Virus record (IMG/VR): IMGVR_UViG_2778261184_000002
Location: 1 to 48,639 of that record
DNA: 48,639 bases
Origin: a virus
Taxonomy: Duplodnaviria > Heunggongvirae > Uroviricota > Caudoviricetes
Strand: one strand, 5' to 3'
Below are positions 4,281 through 42,337 of the stretch, piece after piece (positions within the stretch are counted from its first letter, which is position 1; every line of letters begins with the position of its first letter). A program made the translations under genes and the position numbers. The notes beneath the pieces were generated by a model, which worked only from the letters and a program-made list of their open reading frames with translations, made no database searches and was not told the origin of the DNA.

Positions 4281-4532
4281 TCAACTAACAATCCAGTCCA
4301 TAGCAACCATATCCTCTGGCGCTAAATCAATAGCATGGATTTTCCCATTCCGGATAGTGCGCCAGTGCTTTCGTGATCCGCCTTCTTGCCATACCCATAC
4401 ACCTTCAGACCATGATGCGCGACGACACACTGTTGCATATCCACTTCTGATCTTCTCTCTGGCTGTATGCAGTGACAGATTATCTTTTGGGATTTCCGGT
4501 AAAGGATGGTGGATTGCCTGAAACATCCCCAT
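4281..4532 (-). CDS. DUF2829-like small protein (Tad2-type fold candidate)
   Basis: 83 aa; V-x-RR-x-(S/A)-W near N-terminus (VCRRASWSEGVWVW) and D-W-I/E-V at C-terminus (MDWIVS), shared with four other ORFs in the window. Confidence 0.5.
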   Translation of the reverse strand: MGMFQAIHHPLPEIPKDNLSLHTAREKIRSGYATVCRRASWSEGVWVWQEGGSRKHWRTIRNGKIHAIDLAPEDMVAMDWIVS

Positions 4533-4534
4533 CT

Positions 4535-4714
4535 TTAATTGAGGATCTCCATCGCATCAAGAGTGAAGCGGGCAGCAAAAATGCAGGGGGTATCAGGAAG
4601 GTATGAGCGAGCTTCTGCTTCGGTAGCAGCCATGACGCAGATATACAGGTGTTTTTGGCAGGAATAGAAACGCCAGATAAATTCAGAATGAGTTGGGGTA
4701 GGGGTAGTAGCCAT
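4535..4714 (-). CDS. icd: Icd-like small protein (host cell-division-inhibitor family)
   Basis: 59-aa ORF not in track (MATTPTPTHSEFIWRFYSCQKHLYICVMAATEAEARSYLPDTPCIFAARFTLDAMEILN); RBS AAGGAGG; FIWRF...AATE-EAR signature shared with ORF 43041..43265; 2 nt upstream of the DUF2829 gene. Confidence 0.5.
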   Translation of the reverse strand: MATTPTPTHSEFIWRFYSCQKHLYICVMAATEAEARSYLPDTPCIFAARFTLDAMEILN

Positions 4715-4898
4715 AATGGCAGCCTCCTTTTGCTAATTTAAGGAGCTACCGCGTGAGGTTCCAATCTCAATGGCGGTAGCACTGACTGGGTTGGAACTAC
4801 CGGCGCAAAAGGGAACCGGCCTGCCTTTCGGCAGCCCAGCCAGCACTACCATTGATCTCTGAGCTAAACGCTACGTATGGCTGTGCGATGGCATGACA

Positions 4899-4921
4899 CA
4901 AAAAAAGACGCTTTCGGCGTC
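4899..4921 (-). terminator. Rho-independent terminator (minus strand)
   Basis: GACGC-tttcg-GCGTC hairpin followed on the minus strand by T7. Confidence 0.5.
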
Positions 4922-5028
4922 TGTGTCGCCTTTTGCATTATCCGGGGTTCCAATCCCGGCACCCGTTTTTCTAAGGTGCCGTAGAAATATACCCCACGAT
5001 AATGCCAGGGCGCAACTGTGTGTTTTCT

Positions 5029-5195
5029 TATGCTTTTCTTTTCTTCTTCCGGGATTGCTTGCAGGCGTAGGCCATTGCTTTAGCTTTCACTTCATCCAGC
5101 TTTCCGGTGATCACTTCTTTACCAAGAGTGACAAACCAGTCATAGCAACCGCCAGTTATGTTCTGGATTTGAAAGTTAAGGTAGCGAACGGTCAT
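5029..5195 (-). CDS. Candidate 55-aa basic-tailed small protein (MTVRYLNFQIQNITGGCYDWFVTLGKEVITGKLDEVKAKAMAYACKQSRKKKRKA)
   Basis: RBS GGAGGGAG 7 nt upstream; preceded by a 31-aa ORF overlapping via ATGA; followed by terminator 4899-4921. Confidence 0.25.
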
Positions 5196-5335
5196 TTTGA
5201 TACTCCCTCCAGTTTTGATGGGAGCAAAGAACGCAGGTTATTGCGTGAGTAGACGGTGAGTGATGGGAAAAGTTTGTAATTGTTCATAGTGACTCCTTGC
5301 TTTCGAAGCCGTCACAGACTGTTCCACGGTCTGGT

Positions 5336-5402
5336 GGCGGCGCAATACAGGTTGGAACACCGTGAGTCAACGGGGGCTTTTAGCCACCTGTATTGCGCTG
5401 CC
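5336..5402 (-). ncRNA. Candidate c4-like structured RNA (long hairpin) upstream of the icd-like gene
   Basis: GCGCAATACAGGT (5340-5352) pairs perfectly with ACCTGTATTGCGC (5386-5398) around a 33-nt loop; shares CAGGTGG with the structured region upstream of the second icd-like gene. Confidence 0.3.
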
Positions 5403-5516
5403 ATAACTATGACATTGGCAATCATACGAAATCCCTGGGGGTTTGTCTCGTTATGTTGACCAGTGGTCCAATCCAATCAAAATGTACAATCAATGAATTT
5501 ATAACTCAACATAAAA

Positions 5517-5533
5517 TGTTAGAAAATTAATTC
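5517..5533 (+). promoter_or_regulatory. Operator-like 17-bp motif copy (TGTTAGAAAATTAATTC)
   Basis: One of at least 14 copies of consensus TGTTAGAAAATTAATTT. Confidence 0.45.
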
Positions 5534-6105
5534 ATCATTTCTTGCACCGTCTGATAGAGCGTCATCTCTTCGGCATTGTGCCGTATAAAATCTGCTTTCC
5601 CGCCTATTTTTCCATCAGCATGAACAGGAACCAACCAGGGATATTGTTCGCGGATCTCTGCTGGCGCTGCGTGCTGGTGGTGCCATTTACACAAAGGGAG
5701 AACGTATTTATGGGCATCTTTAGCCGTTCTGCCAAATATGTGGTGGAGAGATACGACAGGGCTATGCTTCCCGTGAAGATGGCAGGCAATACAGGGGATT
5801 TTGCCTATAGCGTCCTGTATCCGGCGCTCTTCTGCTGTGAGTGATCTCCCTTTTAATCCGCGTGACGTGCGCGTTTTTTTGGGGAGGGCAGACGCCGCTC
5901 TCTCTCTTCTGCGCTGTTCACTTTGCCTCGCTTTTTCAAGTTTCTTTTGACGATATTCAGGCGATGCGGCTTTTTCCCTTGCGCGTTGCTGCTGGCGTTG
6001 AGCCTGCTGAAGACGTTTTGCCCTTTGCTCTTCCCGCCATTCCGGATCAGCCAGTTTTTGCATGGCTTTTTGTCTCTGTTTCTCCCAATAACTCTGTCTC
6101 TGCAT
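5527..6105 (-). CDS. ref: Ref-like HNH endonuclease (P1 recombination enhancement function family)
   Basis: 192 aa; highly charged R/Q/E/K-rich N-terminal ~80 aa followed by HNH-type motif CIACHLHG...SLHHIFGRT...LPLCKWHHQ; operator-like site upstream, as for P1 ref. Confidence 0.7.
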   Translation of the reverse strand: MQRQSYWEKQRQKAMQKLADPEWREEQRAKRLQQAQRQQQRAREKAASPEYRQKKLEKARQSEQRRRERAASALPKKTRTSRGLKGRSLTAEERRIQDAIGKIPCIACHLHGKHSPVVSLHHIFGRTAKDAHKYVLPLCKWHHQHAAPAEIREQYPWLVPVHADGKIGGKADFIRHNAEEMTLYQTVQEMMN

Positions 6106-6152
6106 GTTGGCTGCCTCTTACTTATCAGCGATTTTTTATGATTGATCATATT

Positions 6153-6182
6153 TGTTAGATATTCAAAATTGATTTTCTAACA
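6153..6182 (-). promoter_or_regulatory. 30-bp composite operator-like site (TGTTAGAAAATCAATT-N7-TCTAACA on minus strand)
   Basis: Full motif plus inverted TGTTAGA half-site at fixed 23-nt offset; upstream of ref-like gene. Confidence 0.5.
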
Positions 6183-6377
6183 CAAAACATTAATATCAGT
6201 CGCTGTTTACTGTTTGGGGGACATGATGCTTATAGCCTTAAGTGCGATCCACCAGCCACCTGTGAATGAGATCGGCCTGTTTTATGTGCTGTTTTTCGTC
6301 GCGTTGGCGCTACTTGAGCTTGGTATTGAGCTTTTTGCAGTGCTTATGTTTTGCGTCACGATGCTGGAGAAATTTTG

Positions 6378-7001
6378 ATGGTGAAACGTGTTTTGAAAAT
6401 TTACATCGCGGGTCCGATGACTGGTTATCCAGATTACAACCGTGCGGCGTTTAATGCGAAAGCGAGCGAGCTGATGGCTGAAGGGCATATCGTTCTGAAT
6501 CCAGCTGTGTTACCTGGTGGCCTTTGTCAGAGTGAATACATGGATATTTGCCTGGCAATGGTGCGTTCTGCTGATGCGATCTACTTGCTCAATCGATGGG
6601 AGGAATCGATTGGTGCTCGTGCAGAGCACGCGCTGGCTGAAAAGCTGGGGCTGACTGTAATTTATGAGTCACCAACCAACATTGAATGCCAGGTTGCTCC
6701 GCATATTTACCGGGAACTGGTCAATGCGTTACGTGATGTTGCTATTGAATGTCACGGCACGGATCAGCTTCGCGCTCGCTTAAGCCAAACCCTTTCCAGT
6801 TACCTGTCTTTGGCTGAAGGATACAACCTCCGACAGCGAAGAATGGTCAAATTAATCACTCTTTTATCGCAATCCCTTGCAAATGCTGAACCAACCAATC
6901 CGCTACCTGGTGACGCAATGAATTATCTGAAGTCATGCGGTGTTGTTTCTGAAGATGCAGTTCGTTTTGTGGAGTTTATGTCTCGGAGGATGTCGGCGTG
7001 A
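6378..7001 (+). CDS. Nucleoside 2-deoxyribosyltransferase-like protein (DUF4406-type)
   Basis: KIYIAGPMTG N-terminal motif; start placed at ATG 6378 (GGAG upstream) rather than track start 6351. Confidence 0.45.
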   Translation: MVKRVLKIYIAGPMTGYPDYNRAAFNAKASELMAEGHIVLNPAVLPGGLCQSEYMDICLAMVRSADAIYLLNRWEESIGARAEHALAEKLGLTVIYESPTNIECQVAPHIYRELVNALRDVAIECHGTDQLRARLSQTLSSYLSLAEGYNLRQRRMVKLITLLSQSLANAEPTNPLPGDAMNYLKSCGVVSEDAVRFVEFMSRRMSA

Positions 7002-7315
7002 GCTGGCGGGGATGGGGAAGGGCAGAAATCATGATACTCCGCCAGTGCGCCGGAACTATGACGGTAGAGAGTATTGGGAAGCTGATCGGTCGTACCGGTG
7101 ATGCCGTCAGGACTAAAGCGCGGGAGCTGGGGATCAGCATGATTCTGAAAGGAGACTTTCATCCGTCAGCCAAATACCGGCAGAGCGATATAGAACTGGC
7201 ACGGCAGCTTCATCAGTGTGGTGTTCCCCGCCGTGAGATCGCGGAAAAACTCGAAATGCCCCTGGGCATGATTAATCAGTACGTTTATTTCGAAAGGAGA
7301 GTGCATGAAGTCTGA
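6998..7315 (+). CDS. Small HTH DNA-binding protein
   Basis: 105 aa; two HTH-like segments (TVESIGKLIGRTGDAVRTKAREL; RREIAEKLEMPLGMINQYV); overlaps upstream stop. Confidence 0.45.
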   Translation: MSWRGWGRAEIMILRQCAGTMTVESIGKLIGRTGDAVRTKARELGISMILKGDFHPSAKYRQSDIELARQLHQCGVPRREIAEKLEMPLGMINQYVYFERRVHEV

Positions 7316-7814
7316 AGGTTTAACGCCCGCACAACTGGCAGAGCGTAACGCTGAGTATGTAACGGAAATTTCCCGACTTGAGAAAGAGCGCGCGGCGCTG
7401 GCGGCAGAGAATGCGACACTGAAGGCGATATGTGAGGACCGCCGCACGTTCATTATGAATGGCGTGCAGCTTGGTTTTATCAAGGTGCCAACAGTGGAAA
7501 CAGATCCAGCTCTTGAAACAATTCGTATCGCCATATCACCACAAAAAACCACTCCTGCGACCGATGCTTTCTTGGATGAAATGAAGACTGAAGCACGCAA
7601 GGAAGGGGCTTACTTTGTGGCGAACAGAATGTTGGCTGCCTGGAAAGCTGGTTTTATTGATGATACTGCGAAGAACGCCGAGGATATTGCCCAGATGATT
7701 CTTACCTCTACTGATTTTATGGCTAATGCGCCGGAAGGAGATTTTGACCGCTCATTCTCTGATGGCGTTCTCGAAGATATCGCTGAACAGCTTCGTAAAG
7801 GAGTCATCCAGTGA
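7305..7814 (+). CDS. Ea22-like mosaic protein (paralog 1)
   Basis: Shares coiled-coil block and C-terminal PATDAFL...AEQLRKG cassette with 7811-8449, 11025-11642, 11923-12600. Confidence 0.5.
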   Translation: MKSEGLTPAQLAERNAEYVTEISRLEKERAALAAENATLKAICEDRRTFIMNGVQLGFIKVPTVETDPALETIRIAISPQKTTPATDAFLDEMKTEARKEGAYFVANRMLAAWKAGFIDDTAKNAEDIAQMILTSTDFMANAPEGDFDRSFSDGVLEDIAEQLRKGVIQ

Positions 7815-8449
7815 GCGAGCTTTACTATCCGTTACGTGAACGTTATTCACCGAAACCAGCGCCTAAATGCCCTGTTTGTGGCGAGGAAATGTCAATGCAG
7901 CGCATATCTGGATCACATGTTGTTTATGCCTGTTCCGGCATGGAGGATGACGGATGCTTCAAAACTGGACGAACTTATGCTGACGAGCATTACAAAAATT
8001 CGCGCATATCAGTAGTTGATGGTAGCGATCCTGATGTGATTGAACTGCTGGACGAGAACGTGGAGATGGCCCTAACGCTTGAGAAGCTGCGTGTTGAGCT
8101 GGAGGCTGCTAAACAGCGTATTGCCAAATACGAAAGCAATTACGGGGCGATTGTGGCGGAATGCCAAAGCAAAAAAGCAGCACTTGAGGCAATTCTTTGC
8201 CATTGCCCAATTAATCATCCAGATATAGACATCGCATGTATAGCGAACATCGCTCATAACGAATTAGGCGAGGCGAAAAGCACTACATCTAAGGCATCCC
8301 TTGTAGAAATACAGGCACAAGGGGTGGAGGCATTCGCTTTGACGATGCGCGATACAGGAGATGACCCATTTTTTGATTCCGTTGCTTCTGCTTGCGCGGA
8401 TGCAGCTGATAGGTTCGCCGCCCAGCTTCGCAAAGGAGGCAACCGGTGA
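7811..8449 (+). CDS. Ea22-like mosaic protein (paralog 2) with N-terminal Cys cluster
   Basis: CPVCGEE...C-x-GMEDDGC zinc-ribbon-like N-terminus; LRVELEAAKQRIA coiled coil; C-terminal AAQLRKGGNR. Confidence 0.5.
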   Translation: MSELYYPLRERYSPKPAPKCPVCGEEMSMQRISGSHVVYACSGMEDDGCFKTGRTYADEHYKNSRISVVDGSDPDVIELLDENVEMALTLEKLRVELEAAKQRIAKYESNYGAIVAECQSKKAALEAILCHCPINHPDIDIACIANIAHNELGEAKSTTSKASLVEIQAQGVEAFALTMRDTGDDPFFDSVASACADAADRFAAQLRKGGNR

Positions 8450-9625: not shown

Positions 9626-9657
9626 GCCGGGTTACATCGTTTACGCGCTCAAAACCG

Positions 9658-9687: not shown

Positions 9688-9729
9688 TATTATTTTACCG
9701 CTCGGAACAAAACAGAGTCGGTATGCATT

Positions 9730-13143: not shown

Positions 13144-13144
13144 G

Positions 13145-19591: not shown

Positions 19592-20254
19592 TCACTCCAC
19601 AACAAACCAGTCACAGGCCAGCAGGTCGCCAACTGAAGGCACCCACGGAACAACTACACCTTGTGCATTTTTTAAGGCGAAATAAGCACCATACGGAACG
19701 AGGTCGCCGGGGAAATATCCCTTAATGGCTTCCATTCGTGCCGGGTACTGTCCTTCAGGAACCAGCCAGCAGAATTGGTCTTCGCCGTTCCACCCGCGTC
19801 GAGCAACTTTCTTGCCATCCTTCATCCACATCAGCGCGTCAGAAAAGTCGGCTGCTTCAAGGTCGATTTCTTCTTGTAGAGTAGCGATACCGCCAGCAGA
19901 AATAGTTACGTCCCTGGCTGTAATGAATGTCACCCCATTGTGACCTTCAATGCTGAGCGATACCCCATTTTCGGAGGCGTCGTTAACCCGGCTATAGCAT
20001 TTTTCAAATGCTTTCTCTGGCACATAGACCAGATAACCATTTTCAGCAGTGACGAGATATCCTCCTATTTGCGGTCGGAACTTTTCCAAGAACACACCAT
20101 CAACACGAAGCGTCATTCCTTTTGGCTCCACGACTTCGATGCTGCCAAAAATGGGCGCATAAGCTTTGCCGACAATAACAATATCTTTGATTTTCGATGC
20201 CCGAATGATGCTGTGGCATTTGTATTTGGGGAACACCTGAAAAGTGCTGGCCAT
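19592..20254 (-). CDS. Two-domain protein: unknown N-terminal domain fused to C-terminal DUF2829-like domain
   Basis: C-terminal KDGKKVARRGWNGEDQFCWL...DLLACDWFVVE. Confidence 0.5.
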   Translation of the reverse strand: MASTFQVFPKYKCHSIIRASKIKDIVIVGKAYAPIFGSIEVVEPKGMTLRVDGVFLEKFRPQIGGYLVTAENGYLVYVPEKAFEKCYSRVNDASENGVSLSIEGHNGVTFITARDVTISAGGIATLQEEIDLEAADFSDALMWMKDGKKVARRGWNGEDQFCWLVPEGQYPARMEAIKGYFPGDLVPYGAYFALKNAQGVVVPWVPSVGDLLACDWFVVE

Positions 20255-20268: not shown

Positions 20269-20763
20269 TTAAAACTTTGCGTACTGAAGCGGTGTACGCT
20301 TGATTTCAACGCGGCCTTCCGATGTGCTACCAAAGCCACCAGCACCACGCTCCGTTTCGTTGAGTTCCTCAACCTCGACTAGTGAGACTTGTTCAACACG
20401 CTCAAAAATTCCTTGCATGACAGCCATTCCATGCTTGAGACAAACGCCTTCCCCGCCTGGATCAGTAATCAGTTTTGCCATGATTTCGCCGCGATAATCG
20501 GAGTCGATAATTCCTACGCAGTTAGCCAGGCGAGTATGTTTTTTGCAGCCCAATCCTGATCGCGGATAGAGTTTCAGACACCAGCCGGGCGGGATCTCCA
20601 TAGCCAGTCCGGTATACACCCACCAGCTTGAGGAAATTGCACCATTGCTATCGACGCATGGTTTTATTTCAACAGCCTCAAAATCCATCGCCGCCGATCC
20701 GGAGGTGGCATAAGCTGGAAGTTTTGCTGCCGGATGTAGGCGTTTCACTTTTACGTAAATCAT
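20269..20763 (-). CDS. dut: dUTP diphosphatase (trimeric dUTPase)
   Basis: Motifs PRSGLG, GIIDSDYRGE and RGAGGFGSTS in canonical order. Confidence 0.85.
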   Translation of the reverse strand: MIYVKVKRLHPAAKLPAYATSGSAAMDFEAVEIKPCVDSNGAISSSWWVYTGLAMEIPPGWCLKLYPRSGLGCKKHTRLANCVGIIDSDYRGEIMAKLITDPGGEGVCLKHGMAVMQGIFERVEQVSLVEVEELNETERGAGGFGSTSEGRVEIKRTPLQYAKF

Positions 20764-23064: not shown

Positions 23065-24102
23065 ATGAGTAAGAAGTCGATCGAGAAAGAGTACAAACGG
23101 TTCCTGCAAACCGCTGAACGGTGGAAAGAGCTGGTGGTCGCAAACTCTGTTTTCCATGATACCAGTTATGCCGGCGAGGAATTCCGCCACGTTGCACTAA
23201 CACATGATCAGAATGTGCTAGAAGAAGCTGAAAAGTGCCTCACAGAATGGAAAGCCTTTGTTGACTTGTGCCGTAACGCTGACGGCAAAGCGTCCAACAT
23301 TGTTGAGTCTGTATATTCTCCGATCCCATTCATTATTGAGGACACAAATCAAAGCACGCATATTGTTGTGCAAAGCGCGACCACCACCCGCTCATTTACG
23401 CGCGAAAATCTGCTCAAAAAATATGATGCAATTATAAAGAAAAGCCTGAAAAACAAGATATTTTCGCAGATTGTTGGTGCACTTGAAGAAGAGCGCCGTT
23501 TTTTCGCATCAGAACCTGAAGGGGAAGTTTACCGGGCGCGCAAAGATGGATACACAGATGTAGTGCTTACAACAAACATTGAAGGCAGCAATGCTCTGTC
23601 ACGATTCAGGGTAGGCGCACACGGAGCCTTAGTGTTCGCAAAACTTCCGAACACCACAGTGCCCGTTGTTAATAATGTCGGCGAACGTCGCAGCATTACT
23701 ATTTATTCTGGGGTTGAGTCGATCCCTTGCGGCCTGCTTGGTGACTTTAGTCTCTATCGCGTTCGCGATCTGGAGAAACACCAACCAAGCTATGTTGCGA
23801 AGTCATACATCTTGCGAAACATCGACATCCGCAATGAGAGCTTAAAGAACAAATCAGCCAAAATGCTTGAGGAAGCCGATCCGGCTATTCGCCATATCAT
23901 TGAGCGTAAAATACAGACAGCACGCGAAGCGATGGCGAGACTGAATAAAATGGATCTGGAGTTGTTAGACGTAATGATGACATCCGGAGATGACCTGACA
24001 GGCATAAAACTGACAGACGCGCGGAAAAGATACGGTAAAACCATAGAAGAACGTTACGGGTTCACTTTCTCCCAAACACAGCACGCCGCTAAACTCTGGT
24101 AA
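23065..24102 (+). CDS. Hypothetical protein; positional candidate for the primary immunity repressor (C1 analog)
   Basis: 345 aa; lies between pacB-like gene and the recombination site as c1 does in P1; three operator-like motifs within 210 bp upstream. No sequence motif supports the function. Confidence 0.35.
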   Translation: MSKKSIEKEYKRFLQTAERWKELVVANSVFHDTSYAGEEFRHVALTHDQNVLEEAEKCLTEWKAFVDLCRNADGKASNIVESVYSPIPFIIEDTNQSTHIVVQSATTTRSFTRENLLKKYDAIIKKSLKNKIFSQIVGALEEERRFFASEPEGEVYRARKDGYTDVVLTTNIEGSNALSRFRVGAHGALVFAKLPNTTVPVVNNVGERRSITIYSGVESIPCGLLGDFSLYRVRDLEKHQPSYVAKSYILRNIDIRNESLKNKSAKMLEEADPAIRHIIERKIQTAREAMARLNKMDLELLDVMMTSGDDLTGIKLTDARKRYGKTIEERYGFTFSQTQHAAKLW

Positions 24103-27543: not shown

Positions 27544-27936
27544 CTACCAGCGATATAAGCGAACGACGTGTTTTACCTTAGCGATCCACTTACCACGTGA
27601 GTTATTAATTACGGCCTGCGCCACCTTTAAGCTGACTTCAAAATCAGCCTTACGACCATCAGAATCCACCAGCGTTGCACCGTCTATTTCCGGCAGGCTT
27701 AAATAATCCTGTTCTACCTCTAATGGCATTGACGGCTCTCTGAATGGTGTCAATTGCCGAGCTTCCCAGATAAAGCGAACTCTCAATCCCCTATAAGCCA
27801 TTACCATGTAGCCTGTTATCGTGCTCTTATGGCCTGCCTCAGTACGCGCAGCATTACACGATACAATCTTACAGGTGACGATATTCCACTCCACATTGGA
27901 GACTTCGTGAATGCTTAATTTTGTTGTCTCGTACAT
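27544..27936 (-). CDS. Hypothetical protein
   Basis: 130-aa ORF; start overlaps upstream stop. Confidence 0.45.
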   Translation of the reverse strand: MYETTKLSIHEVSNVEWNIVTCKIVSCNAARTEAGHKSTITGYMVMAYRGLRVRFIWEARQLTPFREPSMPLEVEQDYLSLPEIDGATLVDSDGRKADFEVSLKVAQAVINNSRGKWIAKVKHVVRLYRW

Positions 27937-28511
27937 CAGAATGCCTCCCAGTCAGTTGCGATAATATCCACGCCAGTTGCGAACCAGTCTGTCTGCGCCT
28001 GTAAATCCCCATTCATCATTACCAGGCGAGGCATAACCATCACATCGCACCCTTCCACAATATCGAATGCCTCTTCCGGCAAGAATTCGAAGAGCTTTTC
28101 TTTGCTGCCAATGCTGCCACGGAACATCGATAAATAGCTCCCTTTAGGCCATGATGCCCGGCGGGCATCCAGCCCCTTCATCATCCAGAACATGGCGGCA
28201 GAAAAATTGATGTTCTTTTTGGCGATGAAAACATTATTGGCTTCTGTTTGCTTCAGAAACTTAATTAGCCTTGCCATCGACTCGGATAACGCTACGTATG
28301 GCTCATGATTGGCTGCGGACACGCTCACACCATGTAATCCAACACTGACTACCGTCATATCGCCGCTTTGAGCGGTTTCAATGTTGACACCTTTGCGAAC
28401 TAACGAGGCATAAAGTTCCTCTCGCTTTTGTGTCCAGCGTTCCCGCTGACCGATGAAGTCACTCAATATGAGATCTGCTTCTGCATACGCGTTATCGTTC
28501 GCCGTTAACAT
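27936..28511 (-). CDS. Protein with C-terminal DUF2829-like domain
   Basis: C-terminal half FSAAMFWMMKGLDARRASWPKGSYL...DIIATDWEAF. Confidence 0.45.
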   Translation of the reverse strand: MLTANDNAYAEADLILSDFIGQRERWTQKREELYASLVRKGVNIETAQSGDMTVVSVGLHGVSVSAANHEPYVALSESMARLIKFLKQTEANNVFIAKKNINFSAAMFWMMKGLDARRASWPKGSYLSMFRGSIGSKEKLFEFLPEEAFDIVEGCDVMVMPRLVMMNGDLQAQTDWFATGVDIIATDWEAF

Positions 28512-28964: not shown

Positions 28965-29040
28965 TGGTGGCCCCTACCGGATTTGAACCGATGACCGTGC
29001 GATTATGAGTCGCCTGCTCTAACCACTGAGCTAAGGGGCC
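28965..29040 (-). tRNA. tRNA-Ile (anticodon CAU, lysidine-type ileX-like)
   Basis: GGCCCCTTAGCTCAGTGGTTAGAGCAGGCGACTCATAATCGC...GGTTCAAATCC...GGGGCCACCA; clean cloverleaf, encoded CCA. Confidence 0.9.
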
Positions 29041-29482
29041 AATTAGTTTTTATTTTCGACGTCTGAGATTCTTCGTAACTTGTTCTATTCCGTAGACGAT
29101 CACAAGTAGAAACAGCAAAGACCATCCAGGGTTCTTATCGATATACGTCCAAAAATCCATCATTAGTTCCTGTGTTCACCTTACAGCACTGCCACTGAAA
29201 CCAACTATCCGAACAGTAGTTGTCACTCAATAGACGTGACGTATTTATTAGGTTGCGGTGCCGGGTGCCTCCCGGTGCCTGGCGAAGGTTGCACGCCAGG
29301 CGGGTGAGTATCCACAGAAGGCCGACTGTCAGTCTCAACCTTGACCCGCGTGCGCTTAGCCGCATTCACCGCAATGGTAAGAGCACTTGGCTGGCTGGGC
29401 GGCGATGATGCCTGTACGCATTTGGTGATCCGGTTCTGCTTCCGGCATTCGCTTAATTAGCCAAATACTCTTAACGTTGCGC

Positions 29483-29569
29483 TGGCGGAGAGTAATGGAA
29501 TCGAACCATCATCGCTTGCGCAATGGGACGGTTTTCAAGACCGCTTGAGCACCATGCTCCCTACTCTCC
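29483..29569 (-). tRNA. tRNA-Ser (anticodon UGA), class II with long variable arm
   Basis: GGAGAGT...CGGTCTTGAAAACCG anticodon arm, T-arm GATGGTTCGATTCCATT, acceptor ACTCTCC-G-CCA. Confidence 0.85.
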
Positions 29570-29714
29570 GGCCGTTGTGGTGGCCGGTACTGAATCTCCG
29601 GCATACGGTGCAGCCAATTAGGACTACGGACGATCACCGCTCGCGAAAGGGAAGGTTTGCGGCCGCATTTCCCTAACATCCAAGAAAGCTATCGCATCAG
29701 TCTGCGAATCCACC

Positions 29715-29806
29715 ACAACGTTGAGAACACTGGTTGTCACGCTGCAACGCAACATTTATTCGTAGATTGGGATATGACCCCGTTACGTCAGTGTTCTCAA
29801 CGTTGT
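29715..29806. repeat. Perfect 18-bp inverted repeat (ACAACGTTGAGAACACTG / CAGTGTTCTCAACGTTGT) with 56-bp loop
   Basis: Arms 29715-29732 and 29789-29806, inside the tRNA cluster. Confidence 0.8.
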
Positions 29807-30034
29807 AGTACCGGTTACGGTTCCGGCCAGGCCTCTTCCTCAACGGGGTATTCTCCATACGGACTACCGTTTATTGGTCGTTCCTGCGGTTTATGTTGTG
29901 AAGCCAGATGCTTATCTTCTGGTTGCTTCAAAGAGCTGCACTTCATCACAACGGTAAGGGTACTTCGTAGGGATTCGAACCCTCTGCCAAGCACGGCGAT
30001 CTCCGACGTCGCAAAATACCCTTACCTGTTGTGT

Positions 30035-30110
30035 TGGTGCCGATTAACGGACTCGAACCGCTGACATCCTGCTTACAAGGCAGGCGCTCTACCAACTGAG
30101 CTAAACCGGC
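30035..30110 (-). tRNA. tRNA-Thr (anticodon UGU)
   Basis: GCCGGTTTAGCTCAGTTGGTAGAGCGCCTGCCTTGTAAGCAGG...GGTTCGAGTCC...ATCGGCACCA. Confidence 0.9.
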
Positions 30111-30112
30111 AT

Positions 30113-30189
30113 TGGCGATGGTGGGTGGATTCGAACCACCGACCGACAGCTTAGAAGGCTGCTGCTCTATCCTACTGAGCTACACCATC
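30113..30189 (-). tRNA. tRNA-Arg (anticodon UCU; reads rare AGA/AGG)
   Basis: GATGGTGTAGCTCAGTAGGATAGAGCAGCAGCCTTCTAAGCTGT...GGTGGTTCGAATCCACC-CACCATC-G-CCA. Confidence 0.9.
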
Positions 30190-32752: not shown

Positions 32753-33067
32753 TTATTGTGTCATTGCCTGGTAGATAAAATACACGATGCATACCGGTAC
32801 GATAGCCCATTGCAGCAATGAAAGCAGCCTCATGGCTGTCATTGGAGTAACTCCGTCTACGTATTCCTTCTCTGACATTTTCCCTAACCAACTAACCGAC
32901 AAAAGGGTCGAGTTCTCCCCCATTTCCAGCTCCCTGAGGGCTTCCCGGATTAAAGGCGCTGTTACCACCTTGCGGGCAGTGTTGAGCGTAATGCTCCGCG
33001 TCCTCCCGGCGTCATCGGCAAACGCCAGGTTCACATGATATTTTTTGCTCAATGTACAAACTCCCAA
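32753..33067 (-). CDS. Small protein with C-terminal transmembrane helix
   Basis: 104 aa; C-terminal LLSLLQWAIVPVCIVYFIYQA. Confidence 0.4.
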   Translation of the reverse strand: MGVCTLSKKYHVNLAFADDAGRTRSITLNTARKVVTAPLIREALRELEMGENSTLLSVSWLGKMSEKEYVDGVTPMTAMRLLSLLQWAIVPVCIVYFIYQAMTQ

Positions 33068-33249
33068 TCATCAGCGCCTGTACTTTCCGGGGTAATGTGA
33101 ACCTTATCACCAGTGACAATATTCCGAGCCTCTATTGTTCCATTGCTGTGTTTCAACAACTCAACACACAATGGTTGCTGCCAGGAACGACGGCGAGCAA
33201 CAACGTTAGCACCAGCAGGGATAAGTTCAGCCACGTTAAGTAAACGCAA
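33049..33249 (-). CDS. DUF2829-like small protein
   Basis: 66 aa; VARRRSW ... DDWEFVH. Confidence 0.4.
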   Translation of the reverse strand: MRLLNVAELIPAGANVVARRRSWQQPLCVELLKHSNGTIEARNIVTGDKVHITPESTGADDWEFVH

Positions 33250-33263: not shown

Positions 33264-33416
33264 TTAATCAAGACAAACATATTCCGTGATAGCTTTTATG
33301 GCTTCAGCGGCACTGCGCGCCTCAAAGCAGTAGTAACCTGCTTCGGTGAGGCGAGTCATCCAGACGAGTTGTTCGGGAGTCAGGCGATTTCTCCCATGTT
33401 TCATCTCAATGCGCAT
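33264..33416 (-). CDS. Candidate 50-aa small protein (MRIEMKHGRNRLTPEQLVWMTRLTEAGYYCFEARSAAEAIKAITEYVCLD)
   Basis: Not in track; sits immediately upstream of the DUF2829-like gene, same position icd occupies in the other two modules. Confidence 0.25.
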   Translation of the reverse strand: MRIEMKHGRNRLTPEQLVWMTRLTEAGYYCFEARSAAEAIKAITEYVCLD

Positions 33417-33442
33417 TCCGTGGTATCCCCCACAAGCAAGGT

Positions 33443-33754
33443 CTATAGAAAGACGGGATATCCCTTCTTTTGGCCCTCTGCCACCATTTTTATTGCCGTC
33501 CTTATGCCTCGCAGACCGCCGTTTGGAGTGGCGTGTGTATGCTCATACACATAGCGCATATTGCGATACAACCAATCCAGGACGCGTACCTGCTCGTAAT
33601 GCTCATGGTTCCTTTTGATTAGATCTGGGTTTTTCTCCAGTTCTCTGAGAGCTGCGGCATGTGGGGATGTTTCAGAATATTCACTGCGACGCCTTCTTTT
33701 TCTCGCTATTTTTCTAACACACCCATTGATAGTAAATAAGCGAAATAATAACAA
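33443..33754 (-). CDS. Uncertain ORF
   Basis: Track ORF whose first codons overlap an operator-like motif (33704-33719); true start unclear. Confidence 0.2.
   Translation of the reverse strand: MLLFRLFTINGCVRKIARKRRRRSEYSETSPHAAALRELEKNPDLIKRNHEHYEQVRVLDWLYRNMRYVYEHTHATPNGGLRGIRTAIKMVAEGQKKGYPVFL
33704..33719 (-). promoter_or_regulatory. Operator-like motif copy, degenerate (TGTTAGAAAAATAGCG, minus strand)
   Basis: Left half conserved. Confidence 0.3.
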
Positions 33755-33893: not shown

Positions 33894-34154
33894 TTAAAGG
33901 TTTATTTTATCCGGTTCGGATATTTCTGTGATTGTCTTGTCGATTGCGATCAACCACCCTTCATAGGTTAAATCATCAACAAGCTCTACCAGTTTGTCTT
34001 CTGTATGAGGGAAGTATACCCAGCTCCAGCTCGCTGGGTTTTCTGCTTTTCGCAGCGTAAAAACCTTCTTGTAACGGTGAAACTCAAGGACATACCCCTT
34101 CGATATGGAATATTCCTTTAGGTCTTCGACCGTAAACCTACGATTCTTTCGCAT
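33894..34154 (-). CDS. Hypothetical protein
   Basis: 86-aa ORF downstream of DarB-like gene. Confidence 0.45.
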   Translation of the reverse strand: MRKNRRFTVEDLKEYSISKGYVLEFHRYKKVFTLRKAENPASWSWVYFPHTEDKLVELVDDLTYEGWLIAIDKTITEISEPDKINL

Positions 34155-34156
34155 GG

Positions 34157-34591
34157 CTACCCCATGATTCGATATTTCTCTATTGACTCGTCGTAACTTG
34201 TGTACACGTATGGCTCTGTATCATCAGCATAAGGTGCGACTTCCAGAGCATGAACGGGATTGTACACCGCGTCATTTTCCAGGCGATCGCTCGAATACAG
34301 ATGCCCAGCCAAAACCGTAAGCGCCGGGCGACTCATTTTGTAGATCTCTGCCACATCACTATCTACAACTTGTCCAAATGATATGTCGCCGCGCTCCAGC
34401 AATATCGTTTTGAGCGCGGGCCACCACGGACCATAAAGGTGATAAAGCTGTGGATTTTTCTTCAGTCTTTCTACCATGCCATCAAGATAAACTGTCAGGT
34501 ATTCTTCTTCACTCCTGCCATTGAGTGCCTGCGGCAAGATTTCCTCAAGGTAGGATTCCGTCGGTTTTACAGTGTCAATTAGTGTCGTCAT
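34157..34591 (-). CDS. Hypothetical protein
   Basis: 144-aa ORF. Confidence 0.45.
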   Translation of the reverse strand: MTTLIDTVKPTESYLEEILPQALNGRSEEEYLTVYLDGMVERLKKNPQLYHLYGPWWPALKTILLERGDISFGQVVDSDVAEIYKMSRPALTVLAGHLYSSDRLENDAVYNPVHALEVAPYADDTEPYVYTSYDESIEKYRIMG

Positions 34592-37600: not shown

Positions 37601-40600
37601 ATCTGCCACTTTACCGCCAGCTACTTTTGGCAGGGCATCAGCAATAGCTTTTACCTTGTCTGCAAGCTCAACGGGGAACTGGAATGTAATCGCACTGGCA
37701 TACAGATCAGGATCTATAGCAACCTTATCCATGTCGCGGATGATGGAGAAGATGAAATCATCCGGTTTTTCGTTTGTGATATGCCCGTTTTCATCGACCG
37801 TCAGCGCATCTTTACTACTTAACTCCTGTGCACGCTTACGAAGTTCTTCGTAAATGGCCTCTTGCTCTCCTGTCATCGGGATCTGCAAGGTATTCTCGAC
37901 AATATCAGGGATTTTTACCGTCGCCCCGACGTCCGCAGCAGTCTTCAGAGTAGTCCAGCGATGGAAAATACCACGCAGACCATCCAGGTTCTGGAAGCCC
38001 ACCAGTCCCTGCTTCTCTTCCACCTCACCGGAAATTTTCTGAACCTGAACTGTGGCTGTTTTACCGAACACGCGAACGAAATCATCCGGCGTAACAATAC
38101 CCATGCGCATCCACTCTTCCTGCGGAATGACAGTAGACAGCATGTTGAAAGCATCAATCGGGCTGTTCACCAGCGGTGTTGCCGTCAGCATAACCACACC
38201 ACGCCCGTTGTTGCGTTTCATCATGTACGCAGCTTTTACAGCCATGTCGCGGGCCATTTTGGATACTGCCGGGTTAGGCAAATATGCCAGTTGCCCCGCT
38301 TCGCGCCCGGCGCTAAAGGAGTTGCGGTAGTTATGCCCTTCGTCGGCAATTACGCTATCGAAGTTCATATCCTCAAAATACGGGATATTCTGCTTCTTCG
38401 TTGTACCGGTATTTGCGGCCTGGTCCTTAATCTTGTTCTTCTTCTGCGCGTCACGGTGTTTGCCAGATGCCAGGTCAAGACGCCCCATTTCCACAGCATT
38501 AAAGACCGCTTGCTGTGAGTTTTCCTCAATGGTTTCTTCTCGTAGCGGGATAGACGCGAATTGCTCTTTTGTCATGATGACCGTTCGCCAATTTGACGAC
38601 GGGATCATGTTCATGCGCTGAACGATAACGGCGCTGGCGGACTCTTTCACAACATTTCGGGTAAGAGCCTGCCCGTTACTGTCGAGGCGTGGTTCGCCAT
38701 TTTCATCAAGCACCGGCGCGGTCAGAATATTTCCGCTGTCATCACGAACTTCATCCAAACCGATAAACATCATATTGGCGAAGGCATCAGCACTGTAGAA
38801 ACTCTGTGCCTCGTGATACCAGTTCTGATAAACCGCCTTCGGAACAACAATACACGTGCGTTTAGTGCGACCTGTTTCGAAGTTATACGCCTCAAGCGCA
38901 AGCGCGGTCGTGGTTTTACCCAGCCCGGTGCCAAATCCCATGATGCCGCGCCCATCTTCTGATAAGCGACGAACTTCTTCATTCTGATAAGTCAGAGGAA
39001 TGCGCTTCCCACTAATCCCCTCCAGGCCAAGCGGTGCGTCAGAATGCGTAAACGGGATGAAGCCATTAAATGCGTCGTTATAGTCGCGGGCTATCTGATC
39101 AGCCTGCGGGTGAGTGCGTAACCAGTCGTTGAAGCTAATTTCCAGTTGAGCAATCTTATCCAGGTACTCGTTAGCGTTCTGCCCACGCGGTTTAATGCCG
39201 TTCAGGTAGTTTTCTAACTGGTTCAGGAAGCCGTCTTTATTGTTGGCCTTCTTGAACTCATTCCCGTTTTTGCCGTTTACGGTTCGTAGTTGATAGCCAG
39301 TAAATACCCCGTCCTTACCTTCGTAATCGTCCGGAGATACCAGAATGCCGTCCTCAACCTTAAGGTCGGGTTCTGTATACTTAAACTCGTCATAGCCCTG
39401 CTCTGCCAGGAACTCTTTTATCAAGCGGCGATCCAGCCAGCGGGCGTTCAGATTAACGGTGACTTTATTTAGTGGCGTGAAAATGCGTTTCTCTTCGATT
39501 TTCGCCAACTGACGCTCAAAGTTCGCTTTCTGCTCACCTGTTGACGCATCACGCCAGCCCACCAGCAATGCTGTTTTGGTTGCAATATCGCCGCTGGTGG
39601 CGCGGTCCATCGGCAGCAGGCAGCCATACCCATCAATAGCGATATCATCAAATTTCGCCAGGTATTCCAGAGCAGCATCGTCGTCTCCTGGCAGTTCGCC
39701 AGCAAACGCCTCACGAAAATCGTCCAGTGTGATTGGATTAAGTGCCACGTCACTGAAAAGGTGGGTTACAACTTGTTCCGGGCGTGTAAAGTCAATACCG
39801 GCAGCACCATCCGTTACATCAAGTCGTCCAGCAAGGAGGTCAGAAGCAGAGCCGTCCTGTTTCACGTTGCCAGTGAAAGTCATCCAGTTTTTAGCGCCAG
39901 CTTCAGCAATCCCATTCAGCTTAATCGCGTGCGGCGGACCATACTTCGCAATTTCGGCTTCCGCCAGGCGCGCGGCATCAGCAAGTACATCATCAACATT
40001 TTCCCCCAGATTACGCTTATCAAGCGCCTTGTTGATCAACTGCCCTATCAGTGCGCCGCGCATAACGCGTTCTCTGTCTTTTTCTCTCTGCTTGCCAGCA
40101 AAGCGAATCATTGCCGCTACTTCATCACTGATAACCGATGGATAGTCGGACGCGATCGCCGATATCTGGTCCCATGACAACGCCAGAATGCCATTTGTTG
40201 ACTGAAACGCGATCTGCAGATCACCAAACGTCGTAACACCATATCGATTTACATCAAGCGCGGAGGATTTGGTTGTCGCGTCCTTGACCCATTTCAGACC
40301 ATCAAACTCATGCCAGATGCCGCCTACAAGGCGTTTATCGCCCACTTTCGCGCCCTGCCATGCCTGAGTAGTTACGCCAAGCAAATCCCAATTAATGCGG
40401 CTTTCAAAGCGGCGCGATAGAGCGGTTTTCATCGACTCATTGGATACACGACCGTCCTTTTTCACCACCAGGGTATTGCGGAAGCTGGTACGCTCCATAT
40501 CGCCGTAAACAAATCGCTTCCCTTCGGTTGTAAACCATTTTCCTTTGAGGAAGGTATCCCAAAGGACGTTTGCCGATTTGAGCGTTGCATCATCCGTGTC

Positions 40601-41467
40601 GGGGATCATCTCCAGGAAGGTTTCCGGGTGTTTACGCAATACCCATACGTCCACCACGGTATCTGTACCGGATTCGCTGAACGTACCAGAAGGCATACGA
40701 TGTGCGCCCAAAAATTCCGCTTTACGGCTGACTTTATCGCGCAATTTTTTGTATTTCGTACCATCGGTCATGCCATTCGGCACCACCAATACAATTAGTC
40801 CACCAGGTTTAACCTTGTCGATCGTGCGCAACACAAAGTAATTGCCAACGTTCTTCTCGTTTGCATATGCCGGATCAAGCCCGGCAACGCCGGAACGCCC
40901 TTCACCAAACGGTACGTTACCAACAGCGTGGTCATACATTGCGTCTTTCGCCGCCAGCGCCTCAAACGCCCCGATATTCACATCGTCTTCCGGGTGCAAA
41001 AGCTGGTTTATTCGACCGGAAATCGGAGACAGTTCGGCGCTGGTCATTATCATGCCCTGCCGTTTTGTCTCCTGGAAAATACCTGTGCCCGCTGATGGTT
41101 CCAGTACGTGCCCACCATCAATACCGTAGTCAGCAAACAGATCCCATATACCTTCAGCCATAAACTGTGGCGTGTAGTATTCGTATTGGCTGCCCTCACC
41201 ATCTGTCAGGCCGCCCTCACCGGTATACCCGGCAAGAATCTGACGTTGTTCGTCAGTTAATTTCGCCCCATCGAAGCCGGGCGGAAGGGAATTAAGAAGA
41301 TTTACTGCGGCATTGTTTGCTGCCCGGCGTGTTTTCTGAATACTGACGCCATCGGCTTTCCTGACGCCAAAGGTCGCAACAGCACGTAATTTATGCAACC
41401 GACTAACAATTTCAATCAGTTCGCCTAAGCTGGAGGCTTCACTGATTGAATGAAGTAGTTTGTCCAA
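34628..41467 (-). CDS. darB: DarB-like giant protein: N-terminal N6-adenine methyltransferase-like domain plus SF2 (DEAH/SNF2-type) helicase core
   Basis: 2279 aa; MTase motif I LEPSAGTGIF and motif IV-like GNVPFG; helicase Walker A GFGTGLGKTT, DEGH box (VIADEGHNY), motif VI QRNGRGARVG; apparent TTG start with GAGGGGG RBS. Confidence 0.8.
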   Translation of the reverse strand: MDKLLHSISEASSLGELIEIVSRLHKLRAVATFGVRKADGVSIQKTRRAANNAAVNLLNSLPPGFDGAKLTDEQRQILAGYTGEGGLTDGEGSQYEYYTPQFMAEGIWDLFADYGIDGGHVLEPSAGTGIFQETKRQGMIMTSAELSPISGRINQLLHPEDDVNIGAFEALAAKDAMYDHAVGNVPFGEGRSGVAGLDPAYANEKNVGNYFVLRTIDKVKPGGLIVLVVPNGMTDGTKYKKLRDKVSRKAEFLGAHRMPSGTFSESGTDTVVDVWVLRKHPETFLEMIPDTDDATLKSANVLWDTFLKGKWFTTEGKRFVYGDMERTSFRNTLVVKKDGRVSNESMKTALSRRFESRINWDLLGVTTQAWQGAKVGDKRLVGGIWHEFDGLKWVKDATTKSSALDVNRYGVTTFGDLQIAFQSTNGILALSWDQISAIASDYPSVISDEVAAMIRFAGKQREKDRERVMRGALIGQLINKALDKRNLGENVDDVLADAARLAEAEIAKYGPPHAIKLNGIAEAGAKNWMTFTGNVKQDGSASDLLAGRLDVTDGAAGIDFTRPEQVVTHLFSDVALNPITLDDFREAFAGELPGDDDAALEYLAKFDDIAIDGYGCLLPMDRATSGDIATKTALLVGWRDASTGEQKANFERQLAKIEEKRIFTPLNKVTVNLNARWLDRRLIKEFLAEQGYDEFKYTEPDLKVEDGILVSPDDYEGKDGVFTGYQLRTVNGKNGNEFKKANNKDGFLNQLENYLNGIKPRGQNANEYLDKIAQLEISFNDWLRTHPQADQIARDYNDAFNGFIPFTHSDAPLGLEGISGKRIPLTYQNEEVRRLSEDGRGIMGFGTGLGKTTTALALEAYNFETGRTKRTCIVVPKAVYQNWYHEAQSFYSADAFANMMFIGLDEVRDDSGNILTAPVLDENGEPRLDSNGQALTRNVVKESASAVIVQRMNMIPSSNWRTVIMTKEQFASIPLREETIEENSQQAVFNAVEMGRLDLASGKHRDAQKKNKIKDQAANTGTTKKQNIPYFEDMNFDSVIADEGHNYRNSFSAGREAGQLAYLPNPAVSKMARDMAVKAAYMMKRNNGRGVVMLTATPLVNSPIDAFNMLSTVIPQEEWMRMGIVTPDDFVRVFGKTATVQVQKISGEVEEKQGLVGFQNLDGLRGIFHRWTTLKTAADVGATVKIPDIVENTLQIPMTGEQEAIYEELRKRAQELSSKDALTVDENGHITNEKPDDFIFSIIRDMDKVAIDPDLYASAITFQFPVELADKVKAIADALPKVAGGKVADDADEAEEDGAGGLVSTRTSKVVKTTFSEHPSHVEIRAGIELEAEILKAIAAAGIDMQQVSHPIPPKYAALIENLREGLKNGKQIVFIDEKAQHQKLRRIIASALQMPEQEIGIINATTVSQAGGVKLKKVNKPTEPTPNKNGEYKEGAWETYYSKLAQYEDYLSAKNDAGLEGMEGIAADYNEGRTRIIICNKKAEVGINLHIGTTDIHHLTLPWTPASIDQRNGRGARVGSPQEKVNVHYYCGKGTFDDFRLDTLKRKKDWINMVMTSDMSEIANGDADDADERAIMLAANPEERRAIMTRQAQEREERLKLKALREANNALDNYLKAANAAGKDIGMMETELKSAMEQVEHYQRNLDDLIKAGTNRNGQKYVLEQLRDYRKRVRELRFAITRAKDADTVMKRSRGDLERAIKAGVLELDADVLQNPQEYVRTEKNILLHKGSHYRAIIDENHNTTAIVRVTAIDAERGGCTCRISWLDVASRYSRSPGTALFLPFNLIIESVTFEEGVAESRETAARGVQCHQLSTTLTRDQFYDAIRNGVMNVTAGKPGRVWGGGSAIKYWAYRTDDGQIALSSAYDGVIGQKIGRASDIAPERWIYPDGNDEALKREVAKIQASDNPLNVVDGEGFLQALYGYDYIQGMQAWGSQATMDDVSQEFENWMAGRGLSGRSLNKVTSEDILSLFRKPSGEGLESFWKTVVAYRLFQGRMKAFSNTDDIERMFNQVKAAKITAKIEKTRAALVAWRDALFEQYKSLSDADGWSALEQLANNGVDGAKLAIVQADNPLDSPAAQWIKVGAVINAFDEKHISKDDFADAVSVNRLVEMATRRARELKDGDYVNELPDALKSATWQDYVSLKNGGATESEIAERLEQAESKREEQAAVAEARADEAANDDYIIVVNDKPIRAKARVRGRWWSVSEDVGAVYLIADQPGSSTIRNAKDAIKKIGGRFWNFEANPVADVNFDRPAWMVSTRYSVDELRKIIADAA

Positions 41468-41560
41468 AGGATTTCCCCCTCTAAACCGTAAAAAATTCCG
41501 CTATGCGGTACGGTTGAGAGGGTATGGAGAATGTTATTTTCAGGGGGACGATACTACCGT

Positions 41561-41574
41561 CAAAATCACATACT
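41561..41574 (+). promoter_or_regulatory. Candidate late-promoter element CAAAATCACATACT
   Basis: 44 bp upstream of CHAP-hydrolase ATG; near-identical element (CAAATCACATACT) 41 bp upstream of the portal-like gene on the minus strand (47578-47590). Confidence 0.3.
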
Positions 41575-41618
41575 CCCCATAGTTTGCCTACTTATTAACC
41601 CATGACCGGGAGAAAAAT

Positions 41619-42104
41619 ATGGCAAACATTGAACCTCGCTGGCTAATTGAAGCCCGTAAGCACATTGGCCTGACTGAAATAAAAGGCGCTAAACACAACC
41701 CTGAAATCGTTCAGTTCTGGCGCGACATCAAGCGCGGCGGAATTAAAGACGATGAAACGCCGTGGTGCGCAGCATTTGTCGGTGCAATGCTGGAACGTGT
41801 AGGCATCCGCTCAACAAGATTTGAGTCGGCAAAATCCTATCTGGATTGGGGCGAGAAATTAGATACACCGGCATACGGATGTATCGTTGTATTTACCCGC
41901 GTAGGCGGTGGGCACGTAGGCTTCGTTGTCGGACGCCGTGCCAATGGCGATCTGCTTGTCCTGGGTGGGAACCAGGGGGATGCTGTTAATATTCGCGCAT
42001 TCCCAACATCAAGAGTGTCTGGCTATCGCTGGCCTGCTGGCGAACCACGCAATACCGCTCTGTTACCAGTCGGAGACGCAGCAACCTCAACTAATGAGGC
42101 ATGA
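41619..42104 (+). CDS. CHAP/NlpC-P60-type cell-wall hydrolase (endolysin-like)
   Basis: 161 aa; catalytic-Cys context PWCAAFVGAML and His context GGHVGFVVG. Confidence 0.6.
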   Translation: MANIEPRWLIEARKHIGLTEIKGAKHNPEIVQFWRDIKRGGIKDDETPWCAAFVGAMLERVGIRSTRFESAKSYLDWGEKLDTPAYGCIVVFTRVGGGHVGFVVGRRANGDLLVLGGNQGDAVNIRAFPTSRVSGYRWPAGEPRNTALLPVGDAATSTNEA

Positions 42105-42131
42105 AAAAAGCCCCGGCCAGGCCGGGGCATC
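42104..42131 (-). terminator. Rho-independent terminator (minus strand)
   Basis: GCCCCGGCC-ag-GCCGGGGC hairpin followed on the minus strand by T6. Confidence 0.6.
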
Positions 42132-42136
42132 ACGCT

Positions 42137-42337
42137 TCAATTCACGATCCAATCATTACCGACTATATCAGCCGTCGATAAATCAACTTCCCGGATCTGG
42201 AGTCCATTAATACAAAACCATCCGGTAGTAGAGTAATTATCAGGCCAGGCCCATACACCAACACTCCATGCTTTACGGCGGCACACTTCAGCCTGTCCTT
42301 CCCTGATTTTTTTTACCGCCTGCATGATGTCCATCAC
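42137..42337 (-). CDS. DUF2829-like small protein
   Basis: 66 aa; VCRRKAWSVGVWAW ... NDWIVN. Confidence 0.5.
   Translation of the reverse strand: MMDIMQAVKKIREGQAEVCRRKAWSVGVWAWPDNYSTTGWFCINGLQIREVDLSTADIVGNDWIVN

Follow-up and report, generated by a model that had tools for sequence, protein, structure and literature searches.

Two described systems frame the five Tad2-related genes that we analyzed in the IMG/VR virus record IMGVR_UViG_2778261184_000002 (48,639 nucleotides; this whole stretch is called the window here): the Tad2 sponges and the immI immunity operon of phage P1. The Tad2 fold consists of an N-terminal helix and a five-stranded sheet, with long β2-β3 and β4-β5 loops that carry α2 and α3. 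Helix α2 and strand β2 form the dimer, α1 completes the tetramer, and the pocket lies between protomers. In SPO1 Tad2 (PDB 8SME), the pocket residues are W25, N26, W73, S76, T78 and D79 (10.1101/2023.05.01.538930). MoTad2, from a Myroides odoratus prophage (9EIB, PDB name ModTad2), binds histidine-ADP-ribose (His-ADPR) and also cyclic UMP (cUMP), and HgmTad2/AcrIIA7 (8KBI, 9KZR) is a full-length Tad2 in which a second pocket accommodates cyclic dinucleotides (10.1101/2025.08.24.671296); no regulator fusion is known for the latter. The P1 immI operon has the order c4 - icd - ant1/ant2. We found that the Tad2-related set in the window is real and heterogeneous, comprising one predicted sponge of a known type, one probable sponge and three mini-domains, two of which lie in antirepressor cassettes of the immI type.

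The window covers the early/regulatory half of an E. coli phage-plasmid that belongs to the P1 family and is D6-like, as the window is approximately 99% identical to 90-kilobase (kb) non-mobilizable E. coli plasmids and phage D6 is approximately 90% identical to it across the pac-c1-dre region. Near-identical annotated plasmids include NZ_CP069886.1 and CP057742.1. The D6 C1 repressor maps to 23065-24102. All five open reading frames (ORFs) listed by the initial annotation are present, and all five lie on the minus strand, which had been omitted. We refer to them as A to E:

A, 4281-4532, minus strand: 83 residues, the last gene of immI-type cassette 1; a linker followed by a mini-Tad2 domain (residues 19-83, 4281-4478).
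B, 19592-20254, minus strand: 220 residues; an N-terminal domain (residues 1 to about 130) and a canonical Tad2/DUF2829 domain (residues 136-220, 19595-19849).
C, 27936-28511, minus strand: 191 residues; about 100 N-terminal residues and a divergent full-length Tad2-like domain (residues 102-190, 27942-28208).
D, 33049-33249, minus strand: 66 residues, stand-alone, with a TTG start and a GGAG Shine-Dalgarno sequence; the most diverged mini-domain.
E, 42137-42337, minus strand: a stand-alone ORF of 66 residues, with a likely ATG start at 42334 that would give a 65-residue mini-Tad2; the last gene of immI-type cassette 2.

The sequence blocks by which these genes had been grouped are real: the RR-x-W and D-W blocks are common to all five, and G, R, W ... 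D, W are invariant columns of the five-way alignment. The similarity is greater than expected by chance. Identity between A and E is 43% (E value 9e-19), and the description of the set as paralogous holds for this pair; the other copies are not recent in-genome paralogues. Using Pfam PF11195 (Tad2-like, DUF2829; whole-protein gathering cutoff 25 bits), we found that B and C pass the cutoff, whereas E falls below it at 14.9 bits (E value 0.04, full model length) and A and D give no match. The assignment to DUF2829/Tad2 is therefore right at the superfamily level, given the scores of B and C and the identity of A to E.

We performed searches with class-specific hidden Markov models (HMMs) against 912 six-frame fragments of the window. 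Beyond its own class, the A/E HMM next matched D (E value 0.002, full length), followed by C and B, and the D HMM next matched A and then E. The Tad2 HMM next matched E, with A appearing later, behind one weak partial match at 33897-34220 (E value 0.15) that was considered as an extra copy and judged to be a chance match. These searches returned no sixth copy in the window. No further copy was found in the other half of a near-identical plasmid (which itself lacks A), and no Tad2-type copy was found in the first 48 kb of P1. We also checked P1 Ant1 for a hidden mini-Tad2 C-terminus and found none.

Profile comparisons performed with hhalign and controlled with 200 column shuffles placed the mini-domains relative to Tad2. 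A/E aligned with Tad2 at z=7.3 and D aligned with A/E at z=7.6, with none of the 200 shuffles reaching the real score in either case; D compared directly with Tad2 gave z=1.7, a score reached by 13 of 200 shuffles. When the A/E and Tad2 alignments shared no sequence, they aligned over their full length with an E value of 1.5e-5. A first value of 2e-13 was discarded, as the sequence P0012 had been in both alignments. This A/E relative scores 37.4 bits on PF11195, and another, P0010, scores 23.9 bits; members of the D family have no PF11195 match, and a narrow HMM built from B-like Tad2s found no significant match to A, D or E. P0012 itself lies on a short, unrelated contig. The A/E and D families are both narrow: 7 of 1.8 billion representatives matched when they were searched exhaustively with a profile of A and E, and word-indexed homology searches returned 3 close matches for E and 5 for D.

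A, D and E are domains of approximately 65 residues. They differ from SPO1 Tad2 and MoTad2 in being about 20-25 residues shorter, exactly at the β2-β3 insertion with α2, and in lacking W73 and N26. In our alignments, W73 is replaced by I, V and V and N26 by S, S and Q in A, E and D, respectively; all three retain a counterpart of W25, and only A and E also retain one of D79. As the β2-β3/α2 insertion is absent and W73 and N26 are substituted, these three domains are, as judged from the alignments, a minimal mini-Tad2 core (α1/β-sheet/α3) without the classical pocket and dimer interface. The predicted structure of E matches solved Tad2 chains better than anything else, in agreement with the Tad2 fold that had been proposed; the model of D does not single out Tad2.

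Two of the mini-domains close immunity cassettes. There are two separate C4 antisense RNA genes, so the element carries two immI-type cassettes; an earlier paper mentions a second c4/icd region for prophages of the D6-like type (PMC6799933). In the 5' to 3' direction on the minus strand, cassette 1 contains an isrK-type RNA, C4, an icd-like gene and A, and cassette 2 contains a1b1, C4, an icd-like gene, a Rha-family gene and E:

4901-4979, minus strand: isrK-type small RNA upstream of the cassette 1 C4 RNA (Rfam RF01394, 62.5 bits).
4769-4856, minus strand: C4 antisense RNA of cassette 1 (Rfam RF01695, 76.7 bits).
4535-4714, minus strand: icd-like gene of cassette 1 (NCBIfam NF033153, 50.9 bits), with its stop codon 2 nucleotides before the ATG of A.
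4254-4272, minus strand: intrinsic-terminator-like hairpin after A.
43466-43518, minus strand: a1/b1 target sites of the C4 RNA in cassette 2 (Rfam RF03163, 54.4 bits).
43313-43398, minus strand: C4 antisense RNA of cassette 2 (Rfam RF01695, 68.8 bits).
43041-43265, minus strand: icd-like gene of cassette 2 (NCBIfam NF033153 phage_ICD_like, 40.4 bits).
42334-43086, minus strand (likely ATG at 43044): Rha-family (Phage_pRha) putative antirepressor of cassette 2 (PF09669, 36.3 bits, cutoff 29.9).
42110-42128, minus strand: intrinsic-terminator-like hairpin after E.

Both cassettes have the layout of P1 immI, with a C4 RNA, then an icd-like ORF and, downstream, an effector gene under c4 control, and the c4/a1b1 region of cassette 2 is 97% identical to that of P1 (blastn, window 43300-43530 against the P1 c4 region). 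The effector differs: neither cassette has a P1-type Ant1/Ant2. In its place, cassette 2 has the Rha-family protein (PF09669) and the mini-Tad2 E, and cassette 1 has only icd and the mini-Tad2 ORF A. The hairpins that follow A and E are GC-rich and nearly identical, GCCCCGGCC(A/T)GG(T/C)CGGGGC, so the two cassettes have both the domain and the 3' end in common. The ATG of E at 42334 overlaps the stop codon of the Rha gene (TGATG) and is preceded by a strong Shine-Dalgarno sequence, GGAGGTGA; E is translationally coupled to Rha and is followed by the terminator. The initial annotation had placed three copies directly downstream of icd-like or small regulatory genes. This is the case for A, which directly follows its icd-like gene; E instead follows the Rha gene that lies behind icd, and D follows a VRR-NUC gene. 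The associated suggestion of expression early after derepression fits A and E, both of which are under c4 antisense control.

The link between the mini-domain and the antirepressor is covalent in relatives of this element. At the corresponding locus of CP043746.1 and in the homologue P0009, a 313-residue Rha protein carries A as its last 83 residues, ...KRWYHPKMGMFQAIHH...; A is thus the counterpart of the C-terminal 83 residues of the Rha antirepressor of relatives, with the Rha part missing in the window. The Rha protein of cassette 2 is homologous to the N-terminal 230 residues of these fused Rha-mini-Tad2 proteins. Its gene ends ...KRWYHPKMGQFQ... just before E and is collinear with the fused ...KRWYHPKMGMFQAIHH... 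form. In phage D6, the fused gene is annotated as 'anti-repressor Ant', and A is 85.5% identical to its C-terminal 83 residues; A also matches phrog_7385 and the C-terminus (residues 379-431 of 431) of phrog_63, 'anti-repressor Ant'. Compared with D6 and PHROG 63, where the domain is fused to Rha, the domain in the window is unattached, with Rha deleted at A and the domain a separate, translationally coupled ORF at E.

We surveyed 34 IMG/VR loci of the A and E types. The E type was a stand-alone 65-residue ORF in every contig examined that had a readable start, and the A type was mostly fused (308-313 residues). Several differently truncated A-type variants (98-120 residues) also occurred, all with the domain intact, and A of the window, directly after icd, is one such form. 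Locus A (window 3200-5400) is especially variable from one D6-like plasmid to another. CP043746.1 has the full Rha-mini-Tad2 fusion and a transcriptional regulator there, 3 plasmids with at least 80% coverage have the icd-A arrangement of the window, and the locus is replaced by other genes in CP057742.1 and NZ_CP069886.1.

Two distant family members, P0011 (68 residues) and P0010 (96 residues), lie on roughly 90-kb contigs of a sister group; the P0010 contig has approximately 77% identity to D6-like plasmids over a quarter of the 8-kb locus. On these contigs, the mini-Tad2 ORF is directly downstream of a1b1 and the C4 RNA and is the only ORF behind c4; neither icd nor Rha is present in the cassette of either contig. 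This minimal a1b1-C4-mini-Tad2 cassette is located beside the capsid gene (3746-4207 in locus L044 and 3752-4291 in locus L046). The surroundings of the capsid gene are homologous in D6-like plasmids, but that half of their genome contains no mini-Tad2 copy. As the two sister-group cassettes keep the mini-Tad2 ORF directly behind a1b1 and C4, the linkage of c4 to mini-Tad2 is conserved down to 32-40% identity.

The other Tad2-related genes lie outside these cassettes. B is a clear Tad2 (PF11195, 79.5 bits, E value 2.7e-22), and near-identical plasmids annotate it as a DUF2829 protein. In a phmmer search against the PDB, its C-terminal 85 residues matched MoTad2 9EIB at an E value of 1.5e-19, with further matches to Tad2 8V3E, AcrIIA7/HgmTad2 8KBI and SPO1 Tad2 8SME. 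B differs from SPO1 Tad2 and MoTad2 in having an extra 130-residue N-terminal domain. It keeps the SPO1 Tad2 contacts W25/N26/W73/S76/D79 within RRGWNG ... PWVPSVGD, and it is approximately 50% identical to MoTad2, its closest solved relative. Given this identity and the full conservation of ligand-contact residues, our best inference is that B is a sponge against Thoeris and possibly Pycsar. B would oligomerise and sequester ADPR-derived signals of the Thoeris type, and possibly other nucleotide signals, which would protect the phage on entry or induction. B is ordinary in this respect, as this sponge type is already flagged by DefenseFinder in most D6 and P1 phage-plasmids (Tad2/AcrIIA7 in 93% of D6 and 56% of P1 phage-plasmids; 10.1101/2025.09.12.675607).

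The gene next to B on its upstream side, within the same string of minus-strand genes, is dut:

20269-20763, minus strand: dut (dUTPase), as annotated in NZ_CP069886.1 and CP057742.1.

The N-terminal domain of B (residues 1-130, 19865-20254) shows a borderline sequence match, over its residues 57-97, to Dec, the decoration protein of phage L (PDB 6E3C, E value approximately 1e-3), and it occurs as a stand-alone protein in Ralstonia and Burkholderia phages. B-type Tad2 domains that are 50-80% identical (P0017-P0040) carry at least 5 unrelated N-terminal extensions and 1 C-terminal extension in different elements, and these varied extensions suggest that the partner domains are swapped modularly. 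We also followed up an 'isaA' label in SJ46 under a match of B; P1 isaA/isaB was rejected as a homologue of B, with no Tad2 HMM match in that part of P1.

C scores 38.7 bits on PF11195 (E value 1.5e-9). It has very low sequence similarity to the solved Tad2s, with only a marginal match to PDB sequences (SptTad2, E value 0.74), and among phage records it was found in D6 only (92%). W25, W73 and D79 of the pocket are kept, S76 is replaced by T, and C differs from SPO1 Tad2 and MoTad2 by the change of N26 to P. C is located upstream of a 130-residue ORF, lpa and pacAB. It is plausible that C is a second sponge with a different ligand; C is specific to the D6 lineage, with its full-length Tad2-like domain behind another uncharacterised domain. 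Three tRNA genes (28968-30189, minus strand) lie between C and the next gene block, and one flank of these is approximately 89% identical to the tRNA region of P1/P7.

D sits in a darB-olxA-VRR-NUC gene string. Its homologues in Salmonella elements keep this synteny (darB-like helicase, olxA, VRR-NUC, D, a 99-residue ORF and a 402-residue coiled-coil protein). This location among dar-type anti-restriction genes hints weakly that D has a role in anti-defence. The VRR-NUC gene upstream of D (33264-33754, minus strand) looks frameshifted, with an N-terminal part at 33443-33754 and a C-terminal part at 33264 to approximately 33470 in different frames; relatives have 102-residue or 163-residue versions.

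Taken together, we somewhat favor a reading in which the copies form three classes with probably distinct functions, with B a genuine Tad2 sponge domain, C a probable second sponge, and A and E, whose class D joins more remotely, a module of a c4-gated immunity switch. The domain identities, the predicted fold of E, the genomic linkage and the purifying selection on A and D are results of the sequence analysis, and all biochemical activities are inferred from them. A and E would be a partner or effector domain of a Rha-type antirepressor, made only when c4 RNA is lacking, i.e., upon entry into a naive cell or upon loss of immunity. For A and E, such a switch role is most likely compared with that of a classical sponge for glyco-cyclic ADP-ribose (gcADPR), given the recurrent physical and genetic tie to a c4-gated antirepressor cassette and the loss of half of the pocket.

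Several points weigh against this assignment of A and E. Linkage to c4 fits an antisense-gated early anti-defence gene equally well. The A/E-type domain survives as a separate ORF (E) and through several independent N-terminal truncations of the Rha fusion, which argues for autonomy and favors a sponge-like or other stand-alone role. Within the A/E family, the positions equivalent to W25 and D79 do not vary, and the ligand specificity of Tad2 is plastic (10.1101/2025.08.24.671296). P1 Ant1/Ant2 lack a mini-Tad2 domain, as judged from the P1 Ant1 sequence and a scan of P1 immI in six frames, so an antirepressor role cannot be taken over from what is known of P1. The alignment behind the E model held one Pfam-positive DUF2829 sequence (P0012), which may have helped AlphaFold2 (AF2) towards a Tad2 fold, and the membership of D is based on profile similarity to A/E only. 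With an autonomous domain, kept through truncations, in a plastic Tad2 family, an antisense-gated A/E sponge with a new ligand is a serious rival.

At a broader level, it is possible, and we propose this only tentatively, that the 65-residue mini-Tad2 is the real c4-gated effector of D6-type immunity cassettes, be it a new kind of antirepressor module derived from a sponge fold, an antisense-gated sponge (for some other ligand, made in naive hosts only) or a defence-signal sensor linked to derepression. The a1b1-C4-mini-Tad2 layout in the sister group, the Rha fusions and the retention of the domain through independent truncations are compatible with such an effector.

Less probable, but deserving real weight, is that all five copies are nucleotide-signal sponges with diversified specificities, with A and E placed under c4 control for instant production in a naive host. 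Collectively, Tad2 homologues block Thoeris I, II and IV as well as CBASS and Pycsar, and they do so via two different pockets (10.1101/2025.08.24.671296). The predicted Tad2 fold of E, the invariant W25 and D79 equivalents and the autonomy of the domain, both as E and in independently truncated A-locus variants, agree with this alternative, as do the sister-group loci L044 and L046, where mini-Tad2 is the sole c4-controlled ORF, and the place of D among darB/olxA anti-restriction genes. However, A, D and E fall below the Pfam cutoff and lack W73, N26 and the β2-β3/α2 dimer element that builds the tetramer and pocket of SPO1 Tad2. Moreover, we know of no characterised sponge with a recurrent covalent fusion to a Rha-type regulator, which also counts against five sponges. 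The diversified sponge repertoire proposed by the initial annotation is accordingly well founded only for B and plausible for C. For A and E, membership of the c4 cassettes and the fusion in relatives speak for a part in the immunity switch no less strongly than for a sponge role, and the five-sponge reading is thus supported in part only.

We consider it unlikely that A, D and perhaps E are functionless leftovers, with A as the stump left by deletion of a Rha antirepressor gene, E as a detached fragment and D as a small ORF in decay, such that only B and perhaps C matter. The Rha part is indeed missing at locus A here and truncated differently in other plasmids, A is absent from some near-identical plasmids, and D is unannotated in some records. 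However, the ratio of nonsynonymous to synonymous substitution rates (dN/dS) indicates purifying selection on A and D (0.18-0.19 at dS 0.4-0.6): A has a dN/dS of 0.175 against the fused form, and D has a dN/dS of 0.19 at dS 0.60 against its Salmonella homologues. Much of the divergence of A may predate the Rha deletion, in which case its dN/dS is weaker evidence for the stump itself. The truncated A-locus variants all preserve the C-terminal domain. E has its strong Shine-Dalgarno sequence, stop-start overlap and own terminator, and is 89-98% conserved as an intact 65-residue ORF across many contigs; D has its GGAG Shine-Dalgarno sequence and shares synteny with the Salmonella elements. Least likely is that mini-Tad2 is a small-molecule sensor on the antirepressor that couples a host nucleotide signal (for example, from an activated defence system) to prophage derepression, a conjecture invited by a fold known for binding immune signalling nucleotides that is fused to a Rha-type antirepressor under c4 control and keeps the W25 and D79 equivalents, but one for which we found no precedent in the literature searched, and which is at odds with the missing pocket-forming W73, N26 and oligomer interface and with the occurrence of the domain without any Rha part.

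Our literature search found no paper on multi-copy Tad2 or on Rha-Tad2 fusions, and antirepressor cassettes under c4 antisense control that end in a mini-Tad2, either as a gene of its own or as a C-terminal domain, appear to be undescribed in the literature searched. P1-family phage-plasmids are frequent in E. coli, Shigella and Salmonella of clinical origin. Should the mini-domain have kept the ability to bind a nucleotide signal, these elements would carry an anti-defence gene that is gated by an antisense RNA and switched on in naive hosts alone. Should its partner be the repressor or the Rha protein instead, a sponge fold would have been re-used as a regulatory protein module. Either way, the mini-Tad2 offers a defined 65-residue target for the coupling of immunity, induction and counter-defence in P1-family phage-plasmids.

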